In this document: piece by piece, positions 1-30,333 of the stretch
Numbering within the stretch: the first letter of the stretch is position 1
Layout: each line of letters begins with the position of its first letter
Assembly: GCA_021324075.1 (NCBI GenBank)
Contig: JAJPJW010000054.1
Coordinates: 500-64,499 of the forward strand
Origin: Pseudomonadota bacterium
GTDB taxonomy: Bacteria > Oederibacteriota > Muellerivitia > Muellerivitales > Muellerivitaceae
DNA: 64,000 bases
Direction: 5' to 3'
The notes under the pieces: model-generated
Database searches by the model: none
The model's input: the letters and a program-made list of their open reading frames with translations, nothing else
Told to the model about the DNA's origin: nothing
Position numbers and translations under genes: made by a program

Positions 1-1
1 C

Positions 2-721
2 ATGGGCGTCTACAACGGGATGGGCTATGCCTCCCCCGCGGTGGAGGGCGTCATCCACGACGGAGAGCCCCTTTACCTGTTGGATAAGAGCAACATCATC
101 GACGTCCTGCCGGGTGAGCCGCGCAAGGACCTGGCGGTTATCATCGCCGGTTTGGACCGGGAATGGGCCCCGCTCCTCAAGAAGGACTTCCCCAAGGCCC
201 AATGGATCCCCCAATGGGAGTATTACCAGAGCAAGGCCGATGTCCCGGCCCTTTACGACGTGGTCATCAGCGCCTCGGATATCCCTGAAAAGCCGGGCAA
301 GCTCTTCTCCTACCGCGTGGTCCCGGACAAGAAATGGGTCCGCCGCGTTTACGCCACTTATTTCGGATTGGGCCGCGGCATGATCCAATATGAGGACAGC
401 AGCGCCACCTTGAACCCCTTCCCGCCCGGCATGGGCGCCCACTCCGCCGCGGGCGAGGGCGATTGGGAGGCACCCGCCGACGGCGATTACACCTTTTCGG
501 TGAACAGCCCCAATCCCATCCAGATTTGGATTGACGGCAAGAAGGTCCTTTCCTCCATCATCGCCGACTGGGTCCAGCCCAAACCCGTTTCGGCGACGGT
601 TTACCTAACCAAGGGCCCCCATCACGTGAAGTTCCTGACTTTCATGCGGGTGGACGCCTGGTTCGACCGGGTGACCATCCAGGATTCCAAGACCGGCTAT
701 AAGGCGGTTTTGGGCGAATAA
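2..721 (+). CDS. C-terminal fragment (5' truncated by the window edge) of a GT-C/PA14 paralog. It shares the middle domain and the PA14-like C-terminal domain with the two genes downstream.
   Basis: The ORF is open to the window edge. Its 'DLAVIIAGLD...DFPKAQW' and 'YFGLGRGMIQYED...WIDGKKVL...HHVKF' blocks line up with the 743..3334 and 3338..5821 proteins. Confidence 0.6.
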   Translation: MGVYNGMGYASPAVEGVIHDGEPLYLLDKSNIIDVLPGEPRKDLAVIIAGLDREWAPLLKKDFPKAQWIPQWEYYQSKADVPALYDVVISASDIPEKPGKLFSYRVVPDKKWVRRVYATYFGLGRGMIQYEDSSATLNPFPPGMGAHSAAGEGDWEAPADGDYTFSVNSPNPIQIWIDGKKVLSSIIADWVQPKPVSATVYLTKGPHHVKFLTFMRVDAWFDRVTIQDSKTGYKAVLGE

Positions 722-742
722 GCGTTTGAAGAGAGGATCCAG

Positions 743-3334
743 ATGGCGTCCCGAAAGAAACCGTCGAAAACCAAGGCTGCAGTGAAGAAGCCCCGGGCCG
801 GCGTGAAAGCCGCCCAGCGGACAAAAACCCCGGCTTTCCTGGCTTTCCTGGACCCCGTCTTGAACCCGTCCTCCTATAGCAAAGAGAAATACGGCGGCCT
901 CTTACTGGCCTTCCTGGCGGTCGTGGCGGGCCTTTTGGCCCTGCCCAATTACAACCTCCTCTTTTTTCCCGGCAATGCCTTCGTCAAGAACCAGATCCAG
1001 TCCTTTCCACCTTCCAACATCTTTGCCCATCTTCCCTCCACTCCCCTGATCTTCCTGGGCTTCCTGGCCCTCATCCTCCTCTTCCGCATGATCCCCCCGG
1101 TGGGGGAAGGCGCCTGGGACATCCCGGTTTTGCCCGCCCGCATCGCCTTTTGGTTTTTCATGGCCGTGGGCGCCTATTTGCGCCTGGAAAACCCGACCCA
1201 ACCGGTGGGTTTTTTCTGGGACGACCATTACACCATCGACTCGGACATCCGCAACCTGCTGGACTTCCACAAGTATTATTTCCTTTTCCCCGTGGGCTGG
1301 CGCGAGCCCCTCTTCCCCTACCTCTCGGCCTTCCTCTGGCTTTTCAACCCCCAGGCCACCGGCCAAGTGGTGGTGCTCTTGGCCGATACGATCTTCGACC
1401 TCACGGCCCTCTGGCTTTTTTACCTGATCGGCAAGGAAATCGGCGGCCGCCGCATGGGCCTGCTGCTGCTGGCCATGGGCTCCATCTGCAAGACCATGGT
1501 GATGGTGTGCCGGTTCGAATACGGCAACGACACCTGCGTGCTGGGCAGCGCCGTGGCCATGCTGTTTTTCCTTAGGCTCCTCAAGAAGCCCGACCTGAAG
1601 CATTTCATCGAATGGGGCGCGGCCCTGGGCTTTGGGGCCTTCACCTACGTGCCTTTCCGCCCCTGGATGCCGGTTTTCCTCGGCGCGACCTGCCTCTGGG
1701 TTTTCAGCCACGAAAAGGAAAGGCGCTTCAACGCCTATCGTCTCATCCTGGGGCCGGGCCTGCTGCTCTCCTGGGCCTTCCTTTTCCTCCACAAGAATTC
1801 CCTCATGTCCCAGGACAGTGCCCTGGTGCGCTTCCTCGCGGGGCCCGGCGCCATCCTGGCGGGCATCGCCTTGGCGGCCAGCTACGGGAAGGTCTTCCTG
1901 GATGAAAAAAAGAAGGGCTTCAGCCTGCTCTTCGGCTGGGCCACCGGCGCCTTCGTGACGGCCCTCGTCATGATGCCCTTTTACCTGCACCCCAATTACT
2001 CCGAGCACGTGACCGACATCTCGGCCTTCAGCGCCAAGTTCACCACCCCGGGCCAGGGCTGGCAGAAGGTCTGGGAAAACAACGCCTTCACCTGGAAGCT
2101 CCTTTTCGGGCAGGTGGACCACGTCTCCCGCCTTCCGGCCATCGGGGATTCGCTTTACGAGTTCATGGTGGCGGCCTGCACCCTGCTGGGCCTGGCTTAT
2201 TTCATTGCCCGGCCAGGGTGGCTCCAGGCTTTTGTGGTGGCGCTGTTTTTCGTGAGCACGACCGCCGGGACCCTTTCCAACGGCCCCCATTCCTTCCGCT
2301 ACGTCATCTGCGACCTGCCCCTCCTTTTGGCGGGGGCCTGGGGCCTGAACCGCCTCTGGCTGGGGGCCTTGCAGGCCTTCCGGGGAAGTTGGACGGACCT
2401 GGGTCTGGTGCTGGTGTTCTTAGCCGGATGGGTCTGGGAAGGGGCGCAAAACCACAAGCTGGTCTGGGAATGGATGGCCCAGGAAGCCCAAAACACCATT
2501 GTTTGGGACGGCGCGCGCAAAGAGATGCCGGACCACCGGGTCTATCTGATGCAGCACGACCAGGGGTTTTACGCCCCCATCGCCATGATGGTGCTTTCGG
2601 ACGGAACGGACCTATACCAGGCCACTGATTCCAATACCATCGACCTCACACCCGACGAGAAGGGGAAGGACCTGGCCGTCTTCGTTTACGGCAAGGACCC
2701 GGACAGCCAGAAAAAGATCGAAGCCGAGTTCCCGGGCGTCCAGTGGAACAAGAAGTCCTATTACCTGCAGGGCGACGGCGACATACCCTACCTTTGGTGG
2801 GCCGAGATCCCCTTCGACAAGATTCCCACGGATGAGAAGGCCTTCTTCCACGTGCGGCGGGTCGCACCCTCCACCTGGCGCCGGCGCTGTTACGGCTATT
2901 TCGGCCTGGGCCGGGGCCTCATCCTTTACGAGGACCGGGTGGCCCGTTGGAACGACAACCTGCCCCCGCGCCAGTACATCGATTGGAACAATTCCATGCG
3001 GGTGACGGGCGACTGGAATGTGGCGGTGTCCGGCAAGTACAAATTATCCCTGCGCACCCAGGACGTCCTCTGGTTTTTCCTGGACGGCAAGAAGGTGTTG
3101 GACGTGACCCCCGAGGGCGGGGGAACCCACAGCTGCGAGCTTAACCTGGACAAGGGGGTCCACCACGTGGAAGTGGTGACCGCCTTCGCCGCCGAACACG
3201 ACGTCCCGGCCGTGAATGTCACGGCCCCGGGAAGCGCCACCGAGGTGCCTCTGGATGAACTGGCCGCCGGAACGGCGCCCGATGCCCCCCCCGCGCCCGG
3301 CCCGGCCGCGGTTTCCCAGGCGGGGGCTCGATAA
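743..3334 (+). CDS. Polytopic membrane glycosyltransferase, ArnT/PMT_2-like GT-C fold, with a C-terminal PA14-like beta-sandwich domain.
   Basis: 863-aa ORF with a Lys-rich N-terminal tail and more than 10 hydrophobic segments. The loop motif 'REPLFPYLSAFLW' resembles the ArnT 'YFEKPPLxYW' motif. The C-terminus 'YFGLGRGLILYED...SGKYKLSLRTQDVLWFFLDGKKVLD...GVHHVEV' fits the PA14 pattern. It is a paralog of the 3338..5821 gene. Confidence 0.6.
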   Translation: MASRKKPSKTKAAVKKPRAGVKAAQRTKTPAFLAFLDPVLNPSSYSKEKYGGLLLAFLAVVAGLLALPNYNLLFFPGNAFVKNQIQSFPPSNIFAHLPSTPLIFLGFLALILLFRMIPPVGEGAWDIPVLPARIAFWFFMAVGAYLRLENPTQPVGFFWDDHYTIDSDIRNLLDFHKYYFLFPVGWREPLFPYLSAFLWLFNPQATGQVVVLLADTIFDLTALWLFYLIGKEIGGRRMGLLLLAMGSICKTMVMVCRFEYGNDTCVLGSAVAMLFFLRLLKKPDLKHFIEWGAALGFGAFTYVPFRPWMPVFLGATCLWVFSHEKERRFNAYRLILGPGLLLSWAFLFLHKNSLMSQDSALVRFLAGPGAILAGIALAASYGKVFLDEKKKGFSLLFGWATGAFVTALVMMPFYLHPNYSEHVTDISAFSAKFTTPGQGWQKVWENNAFTWKLLFGQVDHVSRLPAIGDSLYEFMVAACTLLGLAYFIARPGWLQAFVVALFFVSTTAGTLSNGPHSFRYVICDLPLLLAGAWGLNRLWLGALQAFRGSWTDLGLVLVFLAGWVWEGAQNHKLVWEWMAQEAQNTIVWDGARKEMPDHRVYLMQHDQGFYAPIAMMVLSDGTDLYQATDSNTIDLTPDEKGKDLAVFVYGKDPDSQKKIEAEFPGVQWNKKSYYLQGDGDIPYLWWAEIPFDKIPTDEKAFFHVRRVAPSTWRRRCYGYFGLGRGLILYEDRVARWNDNLPPRQYIDWNNSMRVTGDWNVAVSGKYKLSLRTQDVLWFFLDGKKVLDVTPEGGGTHSCELNLDKGVHHVEVVTAFAAEHDVPAVNVTAPGSATEVPLDELAAGTAPDAPPAPGPAAVSQAGAR

Positions 3335-3337
3335 CCC

Positions 3338-5821
3338 ATGGCTTCGCCCAAAGGCAAGAAAACCACCACCCGCCGCAAATCCGTTACCCCCCAAAAGGCC
3401 AAGCCGGTTCAGGTGAAAGCGGCCCCGGCGGCCGTTTCCCAGACCGACTTCCTCGGGTTGATGCTCTCCTGGGGCCTGGTTTTCCTGGCCCTGCTGTCCC
3501 TGCCCAACGCCCAGCTTTTGGTCCCGGGCTGGCGGTTTTTTTCCGGGCTGCCCTTTTACCCCCTCCTGATCCTCGGCTTCGCGGGTATGGTTTATTTCTT
3601 CCGGCGGATCCCCGAAGCGGGGACCACCGAGGACATCAGATCCCAATGGGCCCGCCCGATCTTCTTCCTCCTGCTCGTCCTGGGGGCCTTCATCCGGCTC
3701 CAGCAGATCAACCGTATTTCGGGCTGCATCGACAACGACCACTGGATGTGCGCCGACGAAGCCCTCAAGATCATGGAAGAGGGCGACCGGCCCATCCTCC
3801 TGCCCTATGGCCAGAGGGAGCCCTTCTTCGCTTATCTTTCCGCGGCCATCTGGTCCCTGAACCCCCAGGCAACGGCCAACGTAGCCCTGACCCTTTCCTC
3901 GGTATTGGTGGACGTCTTCATCCTGTGGTCCTTCTACCTGTTGGGCAAAGAGTTCGGCGGGCGCCGCGGGGGATTGATCTTCATGGGCATGGGCATGATG
4001 AGCAAGACGCTGGTGGAGATCTCGAAGATCAACTTCGGCTTCCACACGGACGTGCTGGCTTGCGCCTTGACGGTGCTTTTCCTCTTCCGGTTGCTGAAGA
4101 ACCCGAAACTGGCCCGCTTCCTCCATTGGGGCCTGGCCCTGACCCTCGGGTCCTACGTCTATGTGGCCTTCCGGCTCTGGACCCCGGCCATCATCGGCGG
4201 GTTGTGGCTTTGGATGTTTTGGAATCCGGAGCTGAGGCCCAAGACCCGCATCGGCTTCAGCCTTGCCTTCGCGGTCATGGGCGGCTGGACCTTCGCCTTT
4301 TTTTACGTCAACCGGGTGATCCCCCATGAATGGGGATGGGTGCATTTCCTTTCCTCCGGTTGGGGCCTCCTGGCGCTAGTGGCGGGGCTGCTTTTCCTCT
4401 ATATCCGGTCGGGAATGGAAAGCCGCGGTAAGGACTGGGTCTTCAAATGGGCCAGCGGGGCGCTTTTGGTAGCCCTGCTCTTAAGCCCACTTTGGTCCCA
4501 GCCCAATTATTCAGACCACCCGAACGAGATGGTCATTTTCCACCCCCGTTTCGAGATGACCAAGATGCAGTGCATCCTTTACTGCCTGGACAATTTTTGG
4601 AACGGCTTCAAGCTGCTCTTCAGCTACGACAACAACAACCCCTTCTGGAATATCCCCCCCATGCACGGAGATTCCTACATGGATTTTTTCATCCCCCTCT
4701 TCGGCTCGGCGGCCCTGGCGGCCTACCTGGCCCGCCCCCGCCTGGTCCAATCCTCCATCCTGTGCCTTTGGTTCATCGGCTACGCGGCCTTTTTCGTGAC
4801 CCATGGGGCCCATTCCAACCGGCTGATGGCCACCCTTCTGCCGATGTTCCTCATCGCGGCCTGGGGGGCCTACCGCCTGTGGCAGGTCTTCCGTTTTTCC
4901 ACCCTAAAAAACGGCAAGGCCTGGGGTAACGGCCTGCTTTTGGCGGTGGGGCTCTGGTCGTTGGTAACCAACGTCCAGATCCTGCAGGATTGGATGAACA
5001 TGCGCTGGCCCGACGCCTTCGTTCAAGACGTGATCGACGTCCTGCCCCAAGACAGGGTTTACCTGGTGCCCAGCGTGGGCCACTTCGGCGAAAGCGCCTG
5101 GGACCTGGTCAGCGAAGGCAAGGACGTCCATTTGGCCCTGGATTCCAATCCCATCGACCTGGTGGAAGGGGATAAGGGCAAGGATGTGGTGGTCATCCTC
5201 TGGGGAGGGGACGACGCCATGAAGGCCAAGCTGACCCAGGCCTTCCCCGGCGGCAGTTGGAGCGAGAAGGACAGCGCCTGGCCCGTCACCTCCCTCAAAT
5301 GGATCACCATTCCCTTCAGCCAGATCCCCCAGGACCCCAAGGCTTACCTCTCCGTCCGCTATACGCCGGCCACCGATTGGTCGAGGAAGTTCTACAACGG
5401 ATTATTATGCCGGGGGATCATCCGTGATGAGGACCGCTCCAACCATTGGAATGACAACCTGCCGGTCACCTTCATCCAGGGGGACAACACGGGCCGCATC
5501 TCAGGGGAATGGGAAGTGGAAAAGGACGGCGTTTACGAGCTCAGCTTCCGGACCAACAACACGACCCAGCTTTGGGTGGACGGAAAGAAGGTTCTGGAAC
5601 TGCAAAAACCGGACGGTAATCCGGCGCGCCGGACCCGCCTTAAGCTTTCCCAAGGGAAGCACCCCGTTGAGCTCTTGACGGATTTCCATGAGGAGCATGA
5701 TTTCCCGGCGGTTCTCGTCCGTTCCCCGGACGGAAGCTGGGAAAAGCCGTTGGAGGAACTCTCCCAATCCCCGCAGGCGGCTCCGGTCGCGGTGGACTCA
5801 ACCCCGGCATCCGTCCACTGA
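3338..5821 (+). CDS. ArnT/PMT_2-like GT-C membrane glycosyltransferase with a C-terminal PA14-like domain (paralog).
   Basis: 827-aa ORF with a Lys-rich N-terminal tail. The loop 'ADEALKIMEEGDRPILLPYGQREPFFAYLSAAIW' aligns with the ArnT 'DExRYAE...GDW...YFEKPPLxYW' motif block. The C-terminus 'GVYELSFRTNNTTQLWVDGKKVLE...HPVELL' is PA14-like. It lies 3 nt downstream of the previous gene. Confidence 0.65.
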   Translation: MASPKGKKTTTRRKSVTPQKAKPVQVKAAPAAVSQTDFLGLMLSWGLVFLALLSLPNAQLLVPGWRFFSGLPFYPLLILGFAGMVYFFRRIPEAGTTEDIRSQWARPIFFLLLVLGAFIRLQQINRISGCIDNDHWMCADEALKIMEEGDRPILLPYGQREPFFAYLSAAIWSLNPQATANVALTLSSVLVDVFILWSFYLLGKEFGGRRGGLIFMGMGMMSKTLVEISKINFGFHTDVLACALTVLFLFRLLKNPKLARFLHWGLALTLGSYVYVAFRLWTPAIIGGLWLWMFWNPELRPKTRIGFSLAFAVMGGWTFAFFYVNRVIPHEWGWVHFLSSGWGLLALVAGLLFLYIRSGMESRGKDWVFKWASGALLVALLLSPLWSQPNYSDHPNEMVIFHPRFEMTKMQCILYCLDNFWNGFKLLFSYDNNNPFWNIPPMHGDSYMDFFIPLFGSAALAAYLARPRLVQSSILCLWFIGYAAFFVTHGAHSNRLMATLLPMFLIAAWGAYRLWQVFRFSTLKNGKAWGNGLLLAVGLWSLVTNVQILQDWMNMRWPDAFVQDVIDVLPQDRVYLVPSVGHFGESAWDLVSEGKDVHLALDSNPIDLVEGDKGKDVVVILWGGDDAMKAKLTQAFPGGSWSEKDSAWPVTSLKWITIPFSQIPQDPKAYLSVRYTPATDWSRKFYNGLLCRGIIRDEDRSNHWNDNLPVTFIQGDNTGRISGEWEVEKDGVYELSFRTNNTTQLWVDGKKVLELQKPDGNPARRTRLKLSQGKHPVELLTDFHEEHDFPAVLVRSPDGSWEKPLEELSQSPQAAPVAVDSTPASVH

Positions 5822-5845
5822 ACCGATCTTAACTGAGGTAGGGCC

Positions 5846-8152
5846 ATGGCAAAAAAACCTAAATCGAAACCGTTCCGGCGGTCCCCCCAAGGCGGGCCTT
5901 CCTCCGCCCCTGCCCAAGGGAGGTCCGGTGAATGGCAAGTGAGGCTGGAGGGGTTTCTTAAAAAGGCCGGAAAAGCCGAGTTCGAGCACCACCGGGCGGC
6001 GGGCCTTTTCGCCTTGTTCACCTTGATGCTCCTATGGAAGCCGTTGACCCGCCCCAGCATGGTTCCCGGGGGCTATGACATGGTCACGGCCATTCCCTAC
6101 AAATCCTTGTGGTTTGAGAGCCTATTGCGGCTGCATCCGATCCTTTGGAACCCTTATTCCAGCCTGGGACAGCCCTTTGTGGCGCTTGAAAGCCCAGGCG
6201 CCTATGCACCCCTCAACTTTCTGCTCTTCATCCATCCTATTTCCTACGCCTTTACCTGGATGCACATCTTCCATTTCCTATCCGCGGCTTTCTTCACCTA
6301 CCTTTTCCTGAGGGGTTTGGGATGCGGATGGGTCAGCGGGTGCCTGGGTGCCCTGGCTTTCGCCTTCTCGGGTTTCTTCATGGGGCATTATTTTTGGACC
6401 CATCCCAACCTGATCTGGGGCGCCTCCTGGATGCCCCTGCTCTTATACGGTCTCCAGCGCTTCACTGAAAAAAGGGACTTCGCCGGGCTTTTCATAGCTT
6501 CCCTGGCCCTGGGCCTGAGCATCCTCGAAGGCGCCCCCCAAATGGACATGTACGCGCTGATAGCGGGCGGGTTTTGGCTGGCCTGGGCTTGGATCGGCAG
6601 GAAGATCAACTGGAAGGAATTGTGTGGCGCCCTGGCCTGCCTGCTTTTCCTTTCCTTTTCCATCGGGCTTTGCCAATTGGCGCCGGGATACCAATTCGCC
6701 CATCTCAGCAGCCGCTGGTTCTGGGAGTGGGGCGACATCATGAAGGATGTTTTCCGTCCGGAATACTTCAGGTTTTTTATCGATCCTTTCTTCCTGGGTG
6801 GTCCCGGACACGGTGACTACAGGGGCCAATGGGGGTTCCAGGAAGTTGTCGCTTATGTCGGTCTCTTGCCCCTTTTCCTTGCCTTGGGCGGCTTCTTATG
6901 GCTGATGAAGCGAAAACCACTGGTTTGGTGGTTCGCCCTGCTGGGGCTTTTAGGCTGCATCCTAGGCATGGCCGATTCCACCACCCCCACCCACTATATC
7001 TATTTGTTTTTCTACAAATTCATTCCGGGATTCGGGCATAACCGGAGCGTCGCCCGGATCATGCTTCTGGCCGAATTCTCCCTGGCCTGTCTTGCCGCCC
7101 TGGGATTGGAAAATTGGATCGATTTTTGGAAGGGGAAGCGACTTCCCGATCCCTTCCGCAAAGCGCTCACTACCTGGGTTCCGGCGGCGGTATTGGTTTT
7201 TTCCGCGGCGGACCTCTACCATTTCGGCTGCTACAACACTGCTGTCGGGGTCGATTACCGCCAGTATTGGGACCCGGGGATGTTCATCGGCGCGGGGATA
7301 CTGAAGGACATCCAGGACGACCCGACCTACCCGCGGATCCAACCGGAAACCACCGCCGATTCGGATTACGAAATGATCTACAAGGTGTCGGCCGTGATGA
7401 CCGGTTATCCCACGCAAATCCAGACGACCGCCAAGTACCTCGCCGAACAATGGAGATATTCGGAAACGCCTTTGCCGGATTTGCTCCATCTGACCTACCG
7501 TTGGAGGCAGCCGGATTTCACCGCCACCGAGAGGTGGCAGCCCCTTCCCGGCTACAAGTCCTTCTGGACCGACACGAAGGCTTTTCCCAGGGCCTTCATG
7601 GTGGGGGGGTACCAATCGGACCCGGATTACAACCAGGCCATCTATGACATCCGGGACGGGAAAGTGGACCCGCACGAGCAGGTCATCCTCGGACAGGACC
7701 CCCCCGACCGGCCTAACTGGCCCAAGGGCTGGGTAGGGGAAGCCAAGATCACGAAATATGATTGGAACGAGCTTGAGATGGACTGCACCAACGACCGTCC
7801 CTGCTTCCTCGTCCTCTCTGACTCTTTCTATCCCGGCTGGCGGGCCCGGGTGGATGGGCAGCCAACGACGATTTACCAGGCCAATGGGGCCCTCCGGGCT
7901 GTGGAACTGCCCCAGACGGGCCACCACTCGGTTGAAATGTCCTATTATCCGGGGATCATTACCTATTCTTTCGCTTACTCCCTTTTGGCCTGGGTCGTTC
8001 TGGCCCTGGCCTGGATTTTCCGTAAGGGCCTGGCCCGCCGGTATTCGGACCTTTTCAGGGGAAAACTGATTTTCGCCGGGTTCGTGAACCATTTTGAAAC
8101 ACCGCCCTCCCGTAAAGCGGCCTCCGGGCGGCGCGGCAAGGGAAAAAAATAG
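5846..8152 (+). CDS. YfhO-family membrane protein, a GT-C-type glycosyltransferase that uses polyprenyl-phosphate-sugar donors.
   Basis: 768-aa polytopic ORF. The C-terminal block 'SDSFYPGWRARVDGQPTTIYQANGALRAVELPQTGHHSVEMSY' followed by a final TM is characteristic of the YfhO family. Confidence 0.7.
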   Translation: MAKKPKSKPFRRSPQGGPSSAPAQGRSGEWQVRLEGFLKKAGKAEFEHHRAAGLFALFTLMLLWKPLTRPSMVPGGYDMVTAIPYKSLWFESLLRLHPILWNPYSSLGQPFVALESPGAYAPLNFLLFIHPISYAFTWMHIFHFLSAAFFTYLFLRGLGCGWVSGCLGALAFAFSGFFMGHYFWTHPNLIWGASWMPLLLYGLQRFTEKRDFAGLFIASLALGLSILEGAPQMDMYALIAGGFWLAWAWIGRKINWKELCGALACLLFLSFSIGLCQLAPGYQFAHLSSRWFWEWGDIMKDVFRPEYFRFFIDPFFLGGPGHGDYRGQWGFQEVVAYVGLLPLFLALGGFLWLMKRKPLVWWFALLGLLGCILGMADSTTPTHYIYLFFYKFIPGFGHNRSVARIMLLAEFSLACLAALGLENWIDFWKGKRLPDPFRKALTTWVPAAVLVFSAADLYHFGCYNTAVGVDYRQYWDPGMFIGAGILKDIQDDPTYPRIQPETTADSDYEMIYKVSAVMTGYPTQIQTTAKYLAEQWRYSETPLPDLLHLTYRWRQPDFTATERWQPLPGYKSFWTDTKAFPRAFMVGGYQSDPDYNQAIYDIRDGKVDPHEQVILGQDPPDRPNWPKGWVGEAKITKYDWNELEMDCTNDRPCFLVLSDSFYPGWRARVDGQPTTIYQANGALRAVELPQTGHHSVEMSYYPGIITYSFAYSLLAWVVLALAWIFRKGLARRYSDLFRGKLIFAGFVNHFETPPSRKAASGRRGKGKK

Positions 8153-8212
8153 GGAAGAACCCGGCCGAAAATCCGGGTTCGCCCTTAAAATCCATAGCGT
8201 AAGGAGATCTTC

Positions 8213-11158
8213 GTGCCTTCCAGGGAAAAAGGGAGCAGCCCCAAGAAAAATCCGGCCCATCCGGCCTTATTGGCCGTGATGGCTCTTCTGTTGCTTGCGG
8301 CATTCGTGTTCGGGCAGGTGGAGGTTTTGAAAGGACGAACGCTGACCGGCTTCGCCTTTTCACTGGCTGCGGTGGGATTGGGCCTTGCCTTGTACCTGGG
8401 AAAAGGACAACTGCCCAAGCTCGGGGTGAAGACACAAAGTCCCCGGCGAAAAAGCCGCGGTCCCAAGGGGCCGGGCGGATTCTTGAAAAACCTCGACCCA
8501 GTCTCCCTTTTAAAGGGTGCGGGTGTTCTGGCTGCGCTGGTACTGGCGGGTATGGGCCAATTCTATTTGTGCCAAGCGGGCGGTGATTCCACCCTGAAGG
8601 CCGGCCTTTGGTTTTTTTCCGCCGCGGCGGTATTGCTGGTGGCTTCCTTGTGGTCCTGGCGCCGGGAAGGCCTGAAGAACGCTCCCCTTGCCCCCTCCGC
8701 CGAATGGATCCTGCTGGGGCTTGTCCTCCTGATCGCGGTCTTCCTGAGGTCTTACCAAATCGCCTCCCTCCCCTCGGGGCTCTTCATCGACCAGGGCTTC
8801 CAGGGTTATTCAGCCCAACGCATCCTCCACGAAGGCTGGCGGCCTTTTTATGTCGAGGACATCTTCCATGCCTATTCGCTGGCGCTTTACCAGCTGGCCT
8901 TCTGGTTTAAGCTCTTCGGGGCGGGGGAGGTCAGCCTCAAGCTTTTCTACGCCTTCCTCGGCATCCTGGGTTTCCCCCTGGTTTACTGGTCCTTCCGTCA
9001 GCTGGCAGGCCCCCGGGTGGCCCTCTTGATCCTCTTTATCCTGGCCGTCATGCGCTGGAACTACCTTTTCAGCCGGAACGGTTTTCCCACGGTCCAGATG
9101 ATGCTCTACATGTTCGGGACGCTTTCCTTCCTCCTTTACGCCATCCTGCCCAAGAAACCTGCGGACCCGAAGCCGTTTTACAAGGCGGCCATCGCCGCCG
9201 CGGCCTTTTTTGTCCTCGGGGTTTTCCCCTTCGCGTTCTTTTCCCTCTTCTACACAGTGAAGGAAAAATCGGCGGTCCTGGCCGTTTTAGCCGTGTTGGC
9301 CGCCCTGGGCCTTCTGGCCCTCATGGCTTTCTTCATCTACCGGTCGAAAAACAGGCCCACCCTGGTGGCCACGCTTTTGGCTGCGGGTTTCTTCGTCTCC
9401 GGCTTTTATACTTACCAGGCCTATAAGGTCTTCCCGCTGCTTTTGGTCCTGTGGGCCCTCTATGAAGCGGTAGTGAACTGGAGGGAACTCAAGAAAAAAT
9501 GGCCTTATATCCTCCTCTTTGCCGTTCTTGCGGTGGTCCTGGTGCTTCCGGTTTTAGCCAACCCGAATACGCGCGAGAACGACCTTTCCATCTTCCCCCG
9601 GATCCGGGCGGAACACAGCCTCAGGCCCTTCCTGGAGGTGCTCTCCCGGACCGCAGTCATGTTCAACCGGCAGGGTGACCCGAACCCGCGGCATAACCTG
9701 CAGGACTACCGGATGCTGGACGACGTGTCGGGCGCTCTCCTTATCCTGGGGTTGGCCTATGCCCTCTTCCGCGCCAACCGGCGCAAGTATTTCTACGCCC
9801 TGGCGGGCTTTTTCGTCATGAGCCTGGCCTGCGTCCTTTCCATCGACGCGGCCCATGCCAACCGGCTCTTTGCCATGACTCCTTTCATCGCCTTCGTCAT
9901 TGCCGCACCCCTCAGCGCCCTTTGGGGGCGGTTGCGGGCGCTTTGGGGCGAAAAGGGGGAATGGGCCTTCCTGGTGGCCGCTGCGCCCTTCCTGGTGGCC
10001 ATGACGGACCAGAATTTCGACGTCTATTTCCATAAACAAGCCCGCAACCAGGCCTGCTGGAGCGAGTATTCCATTGCCGAGACTTCGGCCGGGCGCATGG
10101 TGGCCGACCATGGCGGCAATTATGATTATTACGTCACCCCCCGTTACTACAACTTTTATACCCTCGACTTCCTGGCCTATCCCTGGCTCAACCAGGTGAA
10201 GCCCCTCCTCCTGCCCGACAGCCTTGTTTCGCGCAGTCCCGGCACGTCACGGGGGCTCTATTACGCCCTGGAGCAGGGCCGCACGGGCGTTTTGGACATG
10301 CTCAAGACCCTCTATCCCGGGGGAACGGCGGAGTATTTGGTGGACCCGACAGGGAACACGGTGGAGTATTTCTACCGCGTCCCCCCGGAAGAAGCGGCGA
10401 AGGCCAAGGGCCTGACCGCCCGGTTTGACCCTCCCGCCGGTGGAAAGGCCGGGGCGCAGATCGACCGTTTCCCGGATGGATTGCCCCCCGGACCCTATCA
10501 CGCCGAATTGACCGGCAACCTTTATGTGCCTGTTACGGGGGATTACCAGTGGGAACTCAAGGGGAACGTCAAGGCGGGGTTGAAAGTGAAAGGATCGAGG
10601 CCCGGCCGTGGTTTTGCCCACCTGGACAAAGGGGAACATCCGGCCACGGTCGAACTGACGGTGCCCGAAGGGGTGACGCCTTCCCTCGTGATCCAGCAAG
10701 TCCCGGAGAAGGGCGTGGCCACCATCCTGGACGCAGGTTCTTTCGACAGCCTTCCATCGGCCAAGGGGTTATTGGGCCGTTATTTCAACAACTGGGACGG
10801 CGCAGGATCCCCCTTGTTGGCCGAATGGGACCCCATCCTCAATTTCACCAACGGCAACGACTTTTCCGTCCAACCTCCGCCCGCTTCGGTCCAATGGGCC
10901 GGCGAAATCGAGGTCCAAGAGGCAGGAACCTACCGCTTCCTGGGCAGCCCGCCCAATATTGCTTCCTTGAAGGTGGACGGGAAGGAGTGGCCGCTGGGGG
11001 AAGCCCAATCCAAGGGCCGTTCCCTTACGGCCGGAAGGCATTCCATCGAGCTGCGGGTGGGGAAGGGGCAGCGCTTCGACAATTTTTCGTTTTATTGGAC
11101 GCTTCCCGACGGAAAGACCGAGGTGGTTCCTTATTCAGTTTTAGGCGAGATCCGGTAA
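8213..11158 (+). CDS. Large GT-C-like polytopic membrane protein with two C-terminal PA14 domains.
   Basis: 981-aa ORF with a GTG start after an AAGGAG RBS. 'GLFIDQGFQGYSAQRILHEGWRPFY' resembles the first-loop motif of PMT_2 enzymes. 'GLLGRYFNNWDGAGSPLLAEWDPILNFTNG...FSVQWAGEIEVQEAGTYRFLGSPPNIASLKVDGKEW...FYWTLPDG' is a canonical PA14 signature, preceded by a second, weaker PA14-like unit. Confidence 0.65.
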   Translation: MPSREKGSSPKKNPAHPALLAVMALLLLAAFVFGQVEVLKGRTLTGFAFSLAAVGLGLALYLGKGQLPKLGVKTQSPRRKSRGPKGPGGFLKNLDPVSLLKGAGVLAALVLAGMGQFYLCQAGGDSTLKAGLWFFSAAAVLLVASLWSWRREGLKNAPLAPSAEWILLGLVLLIAVFLRSYQIASLPSGLFIDQGFQGYSAQRILHEGWRPFYVEDIFHAYSLALYQLAFWFKLFGAGEVSLKLFYAFLGILGFPLVYWSFRQLAGPRVALLILFILAVMRWNYLFSRNGFPTVQMMLYMFGTLSFLLYAILPKKPADPKPFYKAAIAAAAFFVLGVFPFAFFSLFYTVKEKSAVLAVLAVLAALGLLALMAFFIYRSKNRPTLVATLLAAGFFVSGFYTYQAYKVFPLLLVLWALYEAVVNWRELKKKWPYILLFAVLAVVLVLPVLANPNTRENDLSIFPRIRAEHSLRPFLEVLSRTAVMFNRQGDPNPRHNLQDYRMLDDVSGALLILGLAYALFRANRRKYFYALAGFFVMSLACVLSIDAAHANRLFAMTPFIAFVIAAPLSALWGRLRALWGEKGEWAFLVAAAPFLVAMTDQNFDVYFHKQARNQACWSEYSIAETSAGRMVADHGGNYDYYVTPRYYNFYTLDFLAYPWLNQVKPLLLPDSLVSRSPGTSRGLYYALEQGRTGVLDMLKTLYPGGTAEYLVDPTGNTVEYFYRVPPEEAAKAKGLTARFDPPAGGKAGAQIDRFPDGLPPGPYHAELTGNLYVPVTGDYQWELKGNVKAGLKVKGSRPGRGFAHLDKGEHPATVELTVPEGVTPSLVIQQVPEKGVATILDAGSFDSLPSAKGLLGRYFNNWDGAGSPLLAEWDPILNFTNGNDFSVQPPPASVQWAGEIEVQEAGTYRFLGSPPNIASLKVDGKEWPLGEAQSKGRSLTAGRHSIELRVGKGQRFDNFSFYWTLPDGKTEVVPYSVLGEIR

Positions 11159-11184: not shown

Positions 11185-13149
11185 CTAGCGCCCGCTTCCC
11201 GGCACGGAATCGCCGGTGGAGTCGAACGGGACATCTTTTTCTTCGATCAAACTGCGGGCCAGTAATTCTGCGATAAGGTAATCCCCCATGGCGGTGTAAT
11301 GTTTCGAGAGATCCCGCTCGTTGACCGGATAAAAGGATGTTTTCAAAGTGTTATAGGCGGGGGCAATGTCAATCAGTGGGACTTGGTATTTGCCACAAAG
11401 TTCCCTCCAAAAATCCTCGAAAATATCCTGGGGCCAAGAGCGGTGGGGAACATAAACCGAAATGCATTTCGGTGCCAGGCCCCCGCTGGTTTTCATCCCC
11501 TGTAGCCTCTGTGAGAAGACCTGCAAAGCATGGCCGATCATTTCCAAAAGATCCTGATATACCTCGGGATCATCCATTTTGGTGTATTTCCCATAGTCAT
11601 TCGAGGGGAAGGCAGATCCCTCCTGGCACCAACCCTTTTCGAGGCAATGCCGGTAAAAACGGGTGGGCGCTCCCGGGGGAATGCGGGATGAAAGGGGCTT
11701 GAGAAGGTATTCCCCGTCCAGGGCCTTGGGGACCCCGTCCGCATCGACGGGTTTGCTGTAATAATCCATCCAAACCATGGACCACAAGGACAGGACGAGG
11801 TCCACGTCGTAATCCTTCGCCACTTCCAATCCCTGGGTGTTCCCGAAAAACGCCGGGTTTTGGCCCGGATGGCCCAGCATCAGCACTTCGAAATGGATGT
11901 CGCTTCCCCTTAAAGCCGCCTCGGTGTTCAAGATGAGTTCCAGGCGCTTGGGAATGGTGTAAATCCGCAGCGATTCCCCCTTCCAAGCAGGGTCTTTTCC
12001 CTCCTTTTCCGCCAGGGTGGGTGCGTTCACCAGGCGCGAGTCACCCAGCATGAGGATTCGGAAGGTCTTGGGGGGTTTCTTGACGGGGTACCGAAAATCC
12101 AGCGGGGAGTCCGTCGAATACCAGGTTGAGTCAAAATCATAATCCTTCACACTGATGATATTTTGGAAACCGTATCCGGGATAAGCGATGAGCAGCTTCC
12201 TTGCCTCGATGGTTGAGGCCGCGAAGCCGACGGGCGTCCCGCTTTGGAATTGGAGGAGGGGCTCCAAATCACCGGGGGCGTTATTGTCGATGAAATCCCA
12301 GGGCGTCGCCAGGCTGACAGGCGCGTAGGCGGGCGCGACCCTGGCGAGGGGGTCTTTTCCGGCCTGCAAAGCATAAAGGAGGCCATCGGATGCGGCCAAT
12401 TCGGTAATGTGGTCCCCGCTGCCGATCGCCGTCAGTGAAACTGAAAACCGGGAGGGAAGGGTTGTGGCCTGGGCGTCCACGCCGTAAACCGTCGGCAAAT
12501 CGGCGTCCGCAACGCAGATCTTGTCGTGGTACCAGCAGAGGGCCTTCGGGTGGGGCAATTGGTCATTATGGAGCAGTAGAGTTGCGGCCCTTGCGGTTTT
12601 CAGGTCGAGCCGGACCAACTCGGTTTCCTTGGGGAGGGAAAGATAGAGGCTGTCCTCCTTGGGGGAATAGGCCATATTCCAAAACTTCCCCGGTGCGGCC
12701 AGGGTCGATGTCTTCTTTGAGGCCAAATCGATAAGGCGCAGAAGTCCGTTTCCCGCATCGCCGACCGCCAGACGGCTGCTGGGAAGCAGGGAAAGGCAAT
12801 TGGGCCCGTTGAACGAAGCGCTTGCAAGGGGACCGTCGGCCTTCCCGGCCGTGCCGGTGCCGGCCAGCGTTTCAACCCTGTTGTTTTCGTGAAGGTAAAC
12901 CACCCGGATACGGTGATTGCCGGAGTCGGCCACGAAAAGGCGGTCGCCTTTTTCGTCCACGGCCAAGCCGGAGGGGGAGCTAAACCGCGCCTCATAAAAG
13001 GGGCCGTCCTTAAATCCGGAGCAGTCCCCACCCGCCACCAGGTTGTTGAAAGAGTCCACGGGGGTGATGGGGCGGCCAGCGGACGGGAGAAGGACAGCCA
13101 AAATAAAAAAGATGACCTGTTGAAAATGCAAAAGGGACCGGTTCAACAA
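11185..13149 (-). CDS. Secreted NHL-repeat beta-propeller protein fused to a C-terminal SGNH/GDSL-like hydrolase domain.
   Basis: N-terminal signal peptide. NHL-type repeats ('LFVADSGNHRIRVV', 'LAVGDAGNGLLRLI'). A GDS(L)-type block 'FRILMLGDSRLVN' starts the C-terminal ~300 aa. Confidence 0.6.
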   Translation of the reverse strand: MLNRSLLHFQQVIFFILAVLLPSAGRPITPVDSFNNLVAGGDCSGFKDGPFYEARFSSPSGLAVDEKGDRLFVADSGNHRIRVVYLHENNRVETLAGTGTAGKADGPLASASFNGPNCLSLLPSSRLAVGDAGNGLLRLIDLASKKTSTLAAPGKFWNMAYSPKEDSLYLSLPKETELVRLDLKTARAATLLLHNDQLPHPKALCWYHDKICVADADLPTVYGVDAQATTLPSRFSVSLTAIGSGDHITELAASDGLLYALQAGKDPLARVAPAYAPVSLATPWDFIDNNAPGDLEPLLQFQSGTPVGFAASTIEARKLLIAYPGYGFQNIISVKDYDFDSTWYSTDSPLDFRYPVKKPPKTFRILMLGDSRLVNAPTLAEKEGKDPAWKGESLRIYTIPKRLELILNTEAALRGSDIHFEVLMLGHPGQNPAFFGNTQGLEVAKDYDVDLVLSLWSMVWMDYYSKPVDADGVPKALDGEYLLKPLSSRIPPGAPTRFYRHCLEKGWCQEGSAFPSNDYGKYTKMDDPEVYQDLLEMIGHALQVFSQRLQGMKTSGGLAPKCISVYVPHRSWPQDIFEDFWRELCGKYQVPLIDIAPAYNTLKTSFYPVNERDLSKHYTAMGDYLIAELLARSLIEEKDVPFDSTGDSVPGSGR

Positions 13150-13243: not shown

Positions 13244-13936
13244 CTATGGGATGAACTTTAAATCGACCCAATCCACGTTGCTTTCGGTATTGGTGAACTC
13301 GGTGTTGTCCGCGCAGAGGACGAGTTCCTTGGCTCCGGCGACGGGCACGTCGATGGGAAAGGCTTCCGCGTCCGACTTCATCTTGGGACTCCTGAAAATT
13401 TCGCGCCCATCGGCCAGGACGACGTAGACCACCCCCCAATCAGGGCTGGAAGTGGAGTCCTGCCCCACTTTGCAGGAAAAGTGGCCGGCCTTCCCTTGCA
13501 AATCAAAGGCGATCTTGGAAGGCGCATGGGTACCGAACCCGTTTTGGAAGGTCGTTCCATGGATAACCAGCGGCCTCCCGTCGATATTCAGGTTCACCTT
13601 GGGCGGAAGGGTAAAGGTGACGTTGGAGATTTTTTCGCCTAAATAGCCGAATTTGTTGCGGATGTCGTCCGATACGGGGCCGGTCCAAGCGGCGTAACCC
13701 CATTCAGCGGGAATGCCGTCCACGGTTGCGTCCAACTTGTGCCTTTCGAAACCGTCTTGTCCGGACCAGAGGCGGACCATGCGGAGGGAAGGCTGAAGGA
13801 CTGGCAAGAAGGCCAGGGCCAAAAGAAGGGCGGCCGCAAGGGCTGGGAGGGCACCGGTATTTTGGGAGGCCGGAGAGGCTTTCATCGGGGCCTTGCCCTT
13901 GGTTTTTTCGGTTCGGGACCGGACTTGTTTCGGCAT
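13244..13936 (-). CDS. Secreted or membrane-anchored NPCBM-like (NEW2) carbohydrate-binding domain protein.
   Basis: N-terminal hydrophobic anchor. 'NIDGRPLVIHGTTFQNGFGTHAPSKIAFDLQGKAGHFSCKVGQDSTS...VVYVVLADGREIF' matches the NPCBM consensus (IDGK..Y..G.G.HA.S.I.Y.L...F...VG.DD). Confidence 0.55.
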   Translation of the reverse strand: MPKQVRSRTEKTKGKAPMKASPASQNTGALPALAAALLLALAFLPVLQPSLRMVRLWSGQDGFERHKLDATVDGIPAEWGYAAWTGPVSDDIRNKFGYLGEKISNVTFTLPPKVNLNIDGRPLVIHGTTFQNGFGTHAPSKIAFDLQGKAGHFSCKVGQDSTSSPDWGVVYVVLADGREIFRSPKMKSDAEAFPIDVPVAGAKELVLCADNTEFTNTESNVDWVDLKFIP

Positions 13937-16818: not shown

Positions 16819-17523
16819 ATGCCAAGATCTTCTTCCTTCCGCACGGATTTCGAGAACCACAAGGACACTTACCGGCAGGAAATCCAAAATTCCATTTCCT
16901 TTATCGGCCAAAACCTGGATTTTTTCACGCAAGTCAAGGTGGATTGCCTGTTGGACTTGACGCGCCGCTATGTGGGCGGCTCCAACCGGTTGAAAATCCT
17001 GGACGTGGGTTGCGGGGTCGGGATCACGGACCAGTATTTAACCGGCTATTACCAAAAGCTTTACGGTGTGGACCTAAGTCCCGGGGTGGTTCGCAAGGCC
17101 AAACAGTTGAATCCGCGGGCCAGCTACCGGCATTATGCGGGGCGCACCCTTCCCTATGCCTCCAATTCCATGGATGTTACCTTCGCCATCTGCGTCATGC
17201 ACCATGTGCCGCCCGAAGGGCTGGGCCGTTTCGCTTTGGAAATGACAAGGGTCACGCGAAAAGGGGGCCTGGTCGTGGTCATCGAGCATAATCCCTGGAA
17301 TCCCCTGACCCAGATTGCGGTTTCCCGGTGTGAAATGGACGACGACGCCATTCTTTTAAGAAGCCGGAAGGTCGAAGAGCTTTTAAAAGTAAATGGAGAT
17401 ATCGTCGAGAAAAGGTACATCCTGTTCACGCCTTTTCCGGTGCGTCCCTTTCGGTTTTTGGCCCCCTTCCTCGGCAAATTTCCATTGGGTGCCCAGTACT
17501 ACGTCGCCGCCAGGAAAAAATAG
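16819..17523 (+). CDS. Class I SAM-dependent methyltransferase (Methyltransf_11/12 type).
   Basis: Motif I 'ILDVGCGVGITDQYL', followed by an acidic post-motif and 'VMHHVPPEG'. Confidence 0.75.
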   Translation: MPRSSSFRTDFENHKDTYRQEIQNSISFIGQNLDFFTQVKVDCLLDLTRRYVGGSNRLKILDVGCGVGITDQYLTGYYQKLYGVDLSPGVVRKAKQLNPRASYRHYAGRTLPYASNSMDVTFAICVMHHVPPEGLGRFALEMTRVTRKGGLVVVIEHNPWNPLTQIAVSRCEMDDDAILLRSRKVEELLKVNGDIVEKRYILFTPFPVRPFRFLAPFLGKFPLGAQYYVAARKK

Positions 17524-17549: not shown

Positions 17550-18245
17550 TTGGGCAAGAAGGTCGCGATCCTTCAATCCAATTACATTCCGTGGAAGGGC
17601 TATTTCGACATCATCCATAGCGTTGATTTGTTCGTTTTTTACGACGACGTCCAGTTCACGAAGAACGACTGGCGGAACCGCAACAAAATCAAGACCCCCA
17701 ACAGAAGCCAATGGTTGACCATCCCCACGGGCTACCACAACGACCAACTCATCAATGAAGTTACCCTGCCTTCCAAAGACTGGCAGGAGAAGCATTGGAA
17801 GACCCTGACCCAGTACTACGTCCGGGCCCCCTATTTCAAAACCTACGAGCCCCTTTTGCGGAAAATCTACCTCGAAGCCGAGTGGAAGTTCCTTTCGCCC
17901 CTGAACCAATCCCTCATCCGTCTGATCTCCAAGGACATCCTGGGGTTGCCGACGGAATTCGCCCAGTCTTCGGATTTCGAGCTTCCGGGTAAAAAGACCG
18001 AACGGTTGATCGAACTTTTGAAGAAATGCGGCGCCGATTATTACCTTTCGGGCCCCGCGGCCAAGGATTACCTGAAAGAAGAAGCCTTTGAACAGGAGGG
18101 AATCCGGCTAGAATACAAGGACTATTCGGGCTATCCCGAATACCCCCAGTTTTACCCGCCCTTTGAACATTCGGTGACGATCCTGGACCTGTTATTCCAC
18201 ACGGGGCCCAAGGCTTCGGATTATATCTGGGGATGGCGGAACTAG
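17550..18245 (+). CDS. WbqC-like family protein (O-antigen/aminosugar cluster-associated).
   Basis: The N-terminus 'VAILQSNYIPWKGYFDIIHSVDLFVFYDDVQF' is the WbqC family signature. Confidence 0.7.
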   Translation: MGKKVAILQSNYIPWKGYFDIIHSVDLFVFYDDVQFTKNDWRNRNKIKTPNRSQWLTIPTGYHNDQLINEVTLPSKDWQEKHWKTLTQYYVRAPYFKTYEPLLRKIYLEAEWKFLSPLNQSLIRLISKDILGLPTEFAQSSDFELPGKKTERLIELLKKCGADYYLSGPAAKDYLKEEAFEQEGIRLEYKDYSGYPEYPQFYPPFEHSVTILDLLFHTGPKASDYIWGWRN

Positions 18246-19270: not shown

Positions 19271-19933
19271 TTGAAACCCATCGTCCTATTTGGAACAGGG
19301 CCTTACGCTTCGATGGTCCATCATTACCTTTCACGCCAGTCCGCCAGCCGGGTGGCGGCTTTTACCGTCGACGCCCAATACTCGCCCGGGGAGTCCTTTT
19401 GCGGGCTGAAGGTGGCCCCCTTCGCCGAAGTGGAACGGCTTTTCCCGCCGGCCGAGTATGACATGCTGGTTGCGGTGGGCTACAGCCAGGTCAACCGGAT
19501 CCGCGCCGAAAAATGCCGGGAGGCCAAGAGCAAAGGCTACCGTCTGGCTTCCTTCCTCCACCCCACCAACGTATTTTGGGACGGGTTCCAGCCCGGGGAG
19601 AACTGCATTTTTTTCGAAAACAACGTCTTCCAGCCCTTCTCGAAAATCGGCAACAACGTCTGCGTCTGGGCCGGAAGCGACATCTGCCACCACGCCGAGG
19701 TGGGGGACAACGTCTATATCGCGCCGGGAGTCGTCGTCTCCGGGGGGGTCCGGATCGGGGACAACAGTTTCATCGGTTCAAACGCGACGATCCGGGACCA
19801 GGTCAAGATCGGCAAAAACTGCGTGATCGGCGCCGGGGCCGTCATTCTCCACGACGTGGGGGACAATGAAGTCCATGCCGCCCCCGAACCCCGGCAGCTG
19901 TCCGTTAAAAGCAACGAGTTGAAGAATATCTGA
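19271..19933 (+). CDS. PglD/NeuD-family sugar N-acetyltransferase (left-handed beta-helix).
   Basis: N-terminal Rossmann-like 'MKPIVLFGTGPYASMV' followed by hexapeptide repeats ('IGNNVCVWAGSDICHHAEVGDNVYIAPGVVVSGGVRIGDNSFIGSNATI'). The start is TTG. Confidence 0.75.
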   Translation: MKPIVLFGTGPYASMVHHYLSRQSASRVAAFTVDAQYSPGESFCGLKVAPFAEVERLFPPAEYDMLVAVGYSQVNRIRAEKCREAKSKGYRLASFLHPTNVFWDGFQPGENCIFFENNVFQPFSKIGNNVCVWAGSDICHHAEVGDNVYIAPGVVVSGGVRIGDNSFIGSNATIRDQVKIGKNCVIGAGAVILHDVGDNEVHAAPEPRQLSVKSNELKNI

Positions 19934-26464: not shown

Positions 26465-26466
26465 GC

Positions 26467-30313: not shown

Positions 30314-30333
30314 ACCGGAGGAAGACCCTGAAA

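Follow-up and report, generated by a model that had tools for sequence, protein, structure and literature searches.

The first 11,158 positions of a 64,000-nucleotide (nt) stretch of contig JAJPJW010000054.1 (assembly GCA_021324075.1; the whole stretch is called the window here) hold five open reading frames (ORFs) that encode all or the end of membrane proteins of the GT-C glycosyltransferase class. GT-C glycosyltransferases are inner-membrane enzymes that move a sugar from a polyprenyl-phosphate carrier to an acceptor at the periplasmic face. The array is made up as follows:

2..721, plus strand: truncated first paralog; 3' end with a middle α/β domain and a PA14-like domain, the gene being cut by the window edge.
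743..3334, plus strand: second paralog, 863 amino acids (aa); GT-C membrane domain, middle domain and PA14-like domain.
3338..5821, plus strand: third paralog, 827 aa; the protein used for the structure model.
5846..8152, plus strand: YfhO-family GT-C, 768 aa; Pfam YfhO match of 44.2 bits.
8213..11158, plus strand: distant GT-C, 981 aa, with two C-terminal β-sandwich units; recognized by the family transmembrane (TM) hidden Markov model (HMM) and by its orthologues.

As the initial annotation proposed, the five ORFs are co-directional and closely packed, with gaps of 21, 3, 24, and 60 nt in order, and a minus-strand gene (11185..13149) converges on the end of the array. The 239-aa product of 2..721 aligns from its first residue to residues 565–803 of an 803-aa orthologue in a related locus, L001, with 67% identity; it is therefore the C-terminal tail of a paralog of about 800 aa cut at the window edge. 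The proteins of 743..3334 and 3338..5821 share 35% identity over their full length (E = 1.7e-138), and the fragment matches their C-termini with 36% and 32% identity, respectively. Thus, the truncation and the paralogy of the three genes, both put forward in the same annotation, hold. For 3338..5821, the same start was called independently on a near-identical contig (P0001) and is seen in full-length orthologues. P0001 itself, a 100%-identical database protein, ends ‘...AYRSEERRVGKE’ without continuing into the PA14 domain; this odd C-terminus looks like a contig-end or adapter artefact of the source assembly. Scans for promoters and terminators gave results indistinguishable from those of shuffled sequence, so it is the short gaps that speak for an operon.

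The products of 2..721, 743..3334, and 3338..5821 belong to one uncharacterised family, in which a 15-helix ArnT/PMT-like membrane domain is followed by a periplasmic α/β domain and a terminal PA14 domain. In the third paralog, the parts are:

3440..5038, plus strand: GT-C membrane domain, aa 35–567, with 15 predicted TM helices.
4496..4687, plus strand: long periplasmic loop, aa 387–450; candidate specificity determinant.
5045..5407, plus strand: periplasmic α/β middle domain, aa 570–690, delimited by the secondary structure of the model; its ‘mid’ HMM is kept in all paralogs.
5408..5767, plus strand: PA14-like β-sandwich, aa 691–810, at the C-terminus.

Pfam recognizes PA14 in the products of 2..721 (29.3 bits), 3338..5821 (29.1 bits), and 8213..11158 (24.5 bits; cutoff 24), and PMT_2 (PF13231, cutoff 26.1) in that of 743..3334 (30.9 bits), while the PMT_2 score of 8213..11158 (19.6 bits) lies below the cutoff. 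This patchy pattern is filled by family-level evidence. HMMs of the family, that of the PA14 region being built from 109 homologues, find the membrane (E = 1.8e-176), middle (E = 2.9e-42), and PA14 (E = 3.8e-40) domains in the product of 743..3334, and the middle (aa 10–123, E = 1.5e-37) and PA14 (aa 123–238, E = 3.9e-35) domains in that of 2..721. Among 55 diverse family members, 38 match PMT_2 (E ≤ 0.01) and 20 match PA14. Moreover, the 109-sequence family profile matches solved PA14 domains (6qdi, E = 1.6e-12; 6qe7, E = 1.8e-11). NCBIfam gave no match at E ≤ 0.01 for any PA14-bearing protein.

Sequence searches of solved structures, with the single protein and with the family profile, detected the PA14 part alone and no GT-C relative; hence, a comparison of folds was required. 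An AlphaFold2 model of the third paralog built on the 109-sequence alignment reached a pLDDT of 92.4 and a pTM of 0.92, and replaced an unusable model (pLDDT 58.8) built with only 11 close homologues. The model is helical up to residue 567 and continues with an α/β domain (residues 573–690) and a β-sandwich (residues 697–804). In a Foldseek search, the top ranks held only GT-C enzymes and PA14 domains, with ArnT as the top structural match. The fold of the membrane domain is thus that of solved GT-C enzymes, of the GT-C_A type, and the terminal domain has the β-sandwich of PA14. Together, the Pfam, HMM, profile, and fold results support the earlier assignment of an ArnT/PMT_2-like module with a C-terminal PA14 domain. 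A transporter reading was rejected, since every top structural match of the membrane domain is a GT-C enzyme.

The distribution of basic residues sets the predicted orientation. The N-terminal 34 residues of the third paralog contain nine K/R and no acidic residue, and all of its predicted cytoplasmic loops are K/R-rich. Over the 109 homologues, K + R per residue amounts to 0.225 in the predicted cytoplasmic segments, 0.045 in the short periplasmic loops, and 0.061 in the two long periplasmic loops. The N-terminus is therefore predicted to lie inside and the C-terminus outside, which would place the middle and PA14 domains in the periplasm, as in ArnT and as the initial annotation had supposed. 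Two of the 15 predicted TM helices are additional ones ahead of the canonical first helix of GT-C enzymes. Asp134 (numbering of the third paralog; Asp in 102 of the 109 sequences and Glu in 3) is located past the third helix and ahead of two juxtamembrane helices. This is periplasmic loop 1 of the GT-C core, where an acidic residue is expected of GT-C enzymes. Three basic positions are also conserved: Lys223 (K or R in 98 sequences), Arg279 (96), and Arg495 (K or R in 101). By manual helix assignment, these would lie near the periplasmic membrane boundary, at places compatible with phosphate binding. Since these basic residues and the loop-1 Asp are conserved, a pseudoenzyme reading was rejected.

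The domains of the paralogs have not diverged evenly. Between the products of 743..3334 and 3338..5821, the PA14 domains are 44.5% identical and the membrane domains 33.5%. The loop of aa 387–450 shows only 13–32% identity between different paralog types (39% for Ld and Lb of L001, the two types most alike), yet it is the best-conserved segment between orthologues (67–88%); the PA14 and middle domains show 57–72% identity between orthologues. The initial annotation took the tandem diversification to reflect several acceptor specificities chosen by the PA14 domains. The figures do not support this, as PA14 is less diverged than the membrane domain and the loop is the most divergent part. Rather, they argue that this loop, and not PA14, carries the paralog-specific function, as far as sequence comparison can tell. 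Because the paralogs differ most in the loop and little in PA14, the PA14 domains may recognize a feature common to one polymer, while the loop would decide which position or sugar each enzyme handles. Orthologues of the window paralogs are 62–69% identical (69% for 743..3334 and its counterpart in L001), whereas paralogs are 26–37% identical, indicating that the duplications are old and that each copy has been maintained.

The family is large. A HMMER scan of 1.84 billion cluster representatives (50% identity clusters) returned 1555 matches to the family profile at E ≤ 1e-3, of which 154 reach E ≤ 1e-30; of the best 150, the majority are 770–940 aa long and cover the whole profile. A word-index search with the profile contributed few further members. 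Species representatives with the family go under the labels candidate division FCPU426, Candidatus Firestonebacteria, or unclassified ‘bacterium’, and some metagenome-assembled genomes (MAGs) from Danish soil under ‘uncultured proteobacterium’. The window itself most probably stems from an uncultured soil bacterium of FCPU426 or of a closely related lineage. Three loci from such MAGs (L004, L005, and L007; orthologues 61–66% identical) bear the title ‘uncultured proteobacterium’ and other close carriers that of FCPU426; the proteobacterial title is likely to be a placeholder or mistaken. Related loci were fetched with the family of the third paralog (L001–L014) and scanned locally with HMMs. 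In most of them, FCPU426 and Firestonebacteria loci included, two to four three-domain genes stand in tandem, usually followed by a YfhO gene and/or a double-PA14 gene. In a further locus (L015, 1–18458), a distant member lies within seven consecutive co-directional GT-C genes (857, 714, 724, 714, 883, 883, and 881 aa), after which a GH67 α-glucuronidase gene follows on the opposite strand.

No study of a GT-C/PA14 fusion was found in a literature search, and neither Pfam nor NCBIfam has a dedicated model for the family. A ‘PMT2/PA14’ protein of Chloroflexi is listed without comment in an appendix table (PMC8756737), and PMT_2 + PA14 proteins already stand in public annotation as ‘PA14 domain-containing protein’. 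The initial claim that the fusion is not a described architecture was overstated, since GT-C enzymes with an acceptor-binding module are known: the periplasmic carbohydrate-binding module of EmbC binds its acceptor glycan (PMC3044687), the C-terminal β-rich carbohydrate-binding module of GT136 ORF12 binds the O-polysaccharide backbone (PMC11127046), and AftD is a further case.

The fourth complete gene of the array, 8213..11158, encodes a distant relative of the family with one degenerate and one canonical PA14 unit. The family TM HMM covers its aa 104–614 (E = 1.7e-20), and the protein is 56% identical to its L001 orthologue. Its C-terminal units are:

10415..10747, plus strand: proximal degenerate PA14-like unit, about aa 735–845; weak match to the family PA14 HMM at aa 752–796 (independent E-value, i-E, 5e-5).
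10754..11146, plus strand: distal canonical PA14, about aa 848–978; Pfam PA14 match given above and a phmmer match to RsgI3 (E = 4.5e-4).

Of the two PA14 units initially annotated here, the distal one is well founded: a profile of seven orthologues matches 6qdi (E = 8e-19) and 6qe7 (E = 1e-17). The proximal β-sandwich has no meaningful sequence match in the PDB, and its matches to the family PA14 HMM are weak (i-E 5e-5 to 6e-3), though found at the same position in orthologues; calling it PA14 outright was not adopted.

The product of 5846..8152 is a YfhO-family GT-C, as annotated, its Pfam YfhO (PF09586) score standing against a cutoff of 28.5, with the alignment confined to the C-terminal 76 residues (profile positions 756–831 of 835). 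It also matches the NCBIfam models of PgfM1 and PgfM2 weakly, and it is unrelated to the PA14-bearing family (family TM HMM, E = 8). Orthologues with 45–55% identity occupy the same position in L004, L005, and L006, and none is present in L001. Between the third paralog and the double-PA14 gene, L001 instead has an unrelated 685-aa GT-C of PMT_2 type (12431–14488). In this slot of an otherwise syntenic array, one GT-C class has taken the place of another.

The array forms one end of a glycan-assembly locus of about 26 kb, which runs to about 26.5 kb of the window and contains the following further genes:

11185..13149, minus strand: exported protein with an N-terminal NHL β-propeller and an uncharacterised C-terminal half; Pfam NHL 40.7 bits; orthologues in L001 and L004.
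13244..13936, minus strand: membrane-anchored protein with an NPCBM/NEW2 carbohydrate-binding module; Pfam NPCBM 101 bits; hydrophobic segment at aa 29–47; orthologue in L007.
13951..16479, minus strand: sixth GT-C, PMT_2-type, 842 aa, with no detectable PA14; Pfam PMT_2 33.5 bits; family TM HMM E = 1e-10.
16819..17523, plus strand: S-adenosylmethionine (SAM)-dependent methyltransferase; Methyltransf_11 67.7 bits; orthologues of 70–73% identity downstream of the arrays in L001 and L004–L007.
17550..18245, plus strand: WbqC-like protein; Pfam WbqC 267 bits.
18304..19236, plus strand: ArnC/PgfS/GtrB-like polyprenyl-phosphate GT2 with C-terminal TM helices; hydrophobic segments within aa 231–281.
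19271..19933, plus strand: sugar N-acetyltransferase of the NeuD/PglB/VioB family; TIGR03570 178.6 bits (cutoff 160.8).
19966..21102, plus strand: WecE-type dTDP-4-amino-4,6-dideoxyhexose transaminase; NF008687 597 bits (cutoff 375) and TIGR02379 586 bits.
21120..22663, minus strand: two GT2 genes (21120..21947 and 21944..22663), polyprenyl/dolichyl-phosphate sugar synthase-like; Pfam Glycos_transf_2.
22698..23825, minus strand: GT9 heptosyltransferase-like protein of the lipopolysaccharide (LPS)-core type; Glyco_transf_9 61 bits; 78–80% identity in L005 and L013.
23826..24827, minus strand: NHL six-bladed β-propeller protein; Pfam NHL and DUF5128; orthologues of 36–42% identity in L001, L004–L008, L011, and L013.
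24951..26464, minus strand: GT2 (24951..25649; Glycos_transf_2 107 bits) and SAM methyltransferase (25742..26464; Methyltransf_12 63.6 bits), the far end of the locus.

The GT2 of 18304..19236 aligns over its full length to the NCBIfam models of the undecaprenyl-phosphate Ara4FN transferase (E = 5e-46) and PgfS (E = 4.9e-45), below the equivalog cutoffs, and is a candidate maker of the lipid-linked donor. The two GT2s of 21120..22663 have sub-cutoff NCBIfam matches to the PpgS, AglJ, and dolichyl-phosphate hexose transferase models, and the second of them (21944..22663) is 76–80% identical in L005 and L013. The sixth GT-C has a 42%-identical orthologue in L007, and the NPCBM gene sits between it and the NHL gene. 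Two plus-strand ORFs at the far end (24882..25580 and 25637..26578) were rejected as spurious: they have no Pfam match and an odd composition, the real genes lie on the minus strand, and such ORFs are a typical antisense artefact of high-GC DNA.

Beyond the locus, 26467..34935 holds a GH3 β-glucosidase gene with an Fn3-like domain, genes for ABC sugar uptake (SBP_bac_1 and two permeases), and adjacent metK and ahcY. MetK and AhcY make up the SAM cycle, which may supply the three methyltransferases of the locus. A TIR-domain protein (35106..35888, plus strand; TIR_2 63.6 bits, weak ThsB-like match) lies in the stretch of lowest GC (0.505, 34001–36000) and is adjoined by two PilT/T2SSE-type ATPase genes (35896..38030, minus strand). 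This region could be a small defence or mobile insertion.

NHL propellers recur beside the arrays in almost all related loci, mostly just ahead of the first paralog. In L001, L004–L008, and L013, the gene immediately upstream of the array is an NHL orthologue, and NHL genes stand next to arrays in the window, L001 (3930–4937, 17510–19495, and 19508–21523), L004–L008, L011, L013, and L016 (15290–17580). In L016, a distant family member is close to two NHL genes. In addition, a homologue of 1218 aa (P0179) unites PMT_2, PA14, and an NHL propeller in one chain. These associations suggest that NHL propellers and GT-C/PA14 arrays may be physical or functional partners.

Collectively, these observations are best explained by an operon-like row of GT-C glycosyltransferases on the plus strand from 2 to 11158, acting in the periplasm on an envelope glycan; we give this explanation as a whole a probability of about 55%. 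The neighbourhood is the donor-supply side expected for GT-C enzymes, as ArnC/PgfS-like and PpgS-like GT2 genes are encoded in the locus. In this mechanism, the WecE-type transaminase, the NeuD/VioB-type N-acetyltransferase, WbqC, and the methyltransferases would produce a modified dTDP-4-acetamido-4,6-dideoxyhexose, possibly together with other sugars. The ArnC/PgfS-like GT2 and the two polyprenyl-phosphate-sugar-synthase-like GT2s would load undecaprenyl phosphate, and the lipid-linked sugars would be flipped to the periplasm. Each GT-C paralog would then add one sugar in one linkage onto a growing or finished LPS-linked or capsule-like glycan. The loop-1 Asp would serve as the catalytic or metal-binding residue, and PA14 would keep the polymer near the active site, like the modules of EmbC and GT136 ORF12.

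Several points weigh against this explanation. Single-sequence Pfam searches leave the product of 3338..5821 without a PMT_2 match and that of 743..3334 without a PA14 match, and the source and cluster names retrieved for the family are ‘hypothetical protein’ or a bare domain label (‘PA14 domain-containing protein’). Topology was read from positive charges counted by hand along the model helices (positive-inside rule). The matches of the ArnC-like and PpgS-like GT2s are far below the NCBIfam equivalog cutoffs, and no flippase of the GtrA, ArnE/F, MATE, or Wzx type was seen among the larger ORFs of the locus that were screened. Finally, the Asp-Asp pair that holds Ca2+ and sugar in lectin-type PA14 domains (Flo5, Epa, and RsgI3 type) corresponds to Asn740-Asn741 in the third paralog, in the register of the HMMER alignment to 6qe7. 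Of the 109 sequences, 71 have Asn and 13 have Asp at the second position, and the first varies (G, A, S, D, P). Since the pair is not conserved, sugar binding by these PA14 domains, which their relatives lead us to expect, would have to use another mode.

Among other explanations, the enzymes could be PMT-like protein O-glycosyltransferases acting on secreted or periplasmic proteins, e.g., the adjacent NHL propellers, with PA14 reading the protein substrate or earlier glycans. The matched Pfam family is indeed PMT_2, NHL genes directly flank the arrays in the loci listed above, P0179 fuses all three domains, and the nearby GT2 resembles PgfS of streptococcal protein glycosylation, whose PgfM1 and PgfM2 are weakly matched by the YfhO protein. 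However, the GT-C fold does not tell acceptors apart, and the top structural match is ArnT. Furthermore, the GT9 heptosyltransferase-like and dideoxy-aminosugar genes are typical of LPS/O-antigen loci, several conserved paralogs with carbohydrate-binding modules suit stepwise work on a polysaccharide, and the propeller in P0179 points to a partner or accessory domain no less than to a substrate. On balance, we consider protein O-glycosylation unlikely, if still worth keeping in view.

It is more doubtful that the PA14 domains bind no carbohydrate and instead make protein–protein contacts, as in a periplasmic complex of the paralogs with the NHL propellers, or act as spacers. The PA14 domain of anthrax protective antigen is not a lectin, the Asp-Asp site is absent here, and PA14 is directly beside the propeller in P0179. 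The lower divergence of PA14 than of the membrane domain between paralogs is also what a shared docking surface would show. Yet the closest solved PA14 relatives by profile and fold (RsgI3, Lap, MpIBP, Flo5, Epa, GH31, and GH3) bind sugars or belong to glycoside hydrolases, and the C-terminal β-sandwich modules of characterised GT-C enzymes bind the acceptor glycan (PMC11127046, PMC3044687).

Least probable is the reading of the enzymes as ArnT-type modifiers that add aminosugars to lipid A or the LPS core to alter surface charge, with PA14 as a structural appendage lacking an acceptor role: the ArnC-like GT2, the LPS-core-type GT9, a transaminase with an additional, far sub-cutoff match to the ArnB model (198 bits, cutoff 631), and a PA14 domain without the lectin Ca2+ motif would fit it, but no protein reaches any NCBIfam ArnT model, the transaminase is of the WecE type (597 bits) and not of the ArnB type, no ArnA or ArnD homologue was seen in the locus, six GT-C genes maintained as separate orthologous lines go far beyond the needs of lipid A decoration, and the PA14 and middle domains are under purifying selection (57–72% between orthologues).

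The row of periplasmic GT-C enzymes acting on an envelope glycan therefore remains our preferred explanation, and it invites a bolder form. The GT-C paralogs, the double-PA14 protein, the YfhO protein, and the NHL propellers might together constitute a periplasmic assembly line that builds, and does not just decorate, a complex polysaccharide or glycoprotein layer of the envelope peculiar to FCPU426/Firestonebacteria, with the non-lectin PA14 domains serving in common as a processivity clamp for the nascent polymer. We hold this to be speculative and rather improbable as it stands. If true, it would represent periplasmic polymer synthesis driven by polyprenyl-phosphate sugars outside Actinobacteria, analogous to arabinan assembly in mycobacteria.

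GT-C enzymes shape much of the bacterial surface, and how they choose their acceptors is poorly understood. Only a few GT-C enzymes with their own glycan-binding module are known (EmbC, AftD, and GT136 ORF12), and the present family adds a compact, modelled case with PA14. Three to four conserved paralogs side by side offer a natural comparison for the parts that set specificity, for which the data point to the loop of aa 387–450. The family also offers an initial way into the functional study of the envelope in candidate division FCPU426, which to our knowledge lives in soil and peat and has no cultured member. Its value is incremental, as the principle is established and nothing here conflicts with current understanding; the most useful leads are the periplasmic loop specific to each paralog and the NHL propeller as a recurring partner.

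Comparison with known systems places the array among several of them. The product of 5846..8152 resembles the YfhO/PgfM types (Bacillus YfhO, Listeria GtlB, and Streptococcus PgfM1/PgfM2) in its Pfam match and in the PgfS-like GT2 encoded near it, but it aligns to YfhO over its C-terminal end only. The PA14 domains share the conserved core ‘G-x-Y ... L-x-V-D-G’ with the PF07691 domains of RsgI3 and Clostridium thermocellum 6QDI, of RTX/Lap and yeast Flo/Epa adhesins, and of GH31 and GH3 enzymes. They differ in lacking the conserved Asp-Asp pair and in being carried by a polytopic membrane enzyme, not by a soluble enzyme, adhesin, toxin, or anti-sigma factor.

Several members of the family belong by match to PMT_2, the Pfam family of ArnT (GT83; 5EZM, 5F15). 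Like ArnT, the family has an acidic residue in periplasmic loop 1 with juxtamembrane helices behind it, a periplasmic α/β domain past the last TM helix, and an ArnC-like GT2 encoded nearby. Nevertheless, sequence identity is only about 10% and no NCBIfam ArnT model is matched, 15 TM helices are predicted compared with 13 in ArnT, the two extra ones being N-terminal, and the family has a terminal PA14 domain and several tandem paralogs. Likewise, the sugar pathway of the locus is of the WecE/VioB type and not ArnA/B/D, which separates these proteins from ArnT proper.

The closest parallels are architectural. GT136 ORF12 of Citrobacter youngae O1 and the GtrA/GtrB/Gtr* systems pair a polyprenyl-phosphate sugar synthase with a GT-C enzyme that decorates a finished polymer in the periplasm. 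The window locus has the synthase-like GT2s and five to six GT-C genes instead of one, its binding module is PA14, and the flippase of the three-component systems was not seen among the larger ORFs screened. The mycobacterial arabinosyltransferases EmbA/B/C and AftD (GT53 and relatives) carry periplasmic acceptor-binding modules after the membrane domain (PMC3044687; PMC11127046); their modules belong to another fold family than PA14, and they serve another phylum and another envelope. A comparison of the family profile with solved structures found no sequence relationship to Emb, AftD, or GT136, so the likeness is one of architectural class and not of sequence family. In the window proteins, as in the Emb, AftD, and GT136 type, a β-sandwich follows the last TM helix and is predicted to be periplasmic, and, as in embCAB, the paralogs stand in tandem. 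The Emb enzymes use a polyprenyl-phosphate sugar donor, and the window family is predicted from context to do likewise. The PA14-tailed GT-C family is thus an unstudied version of an established design and introduces no new principle.

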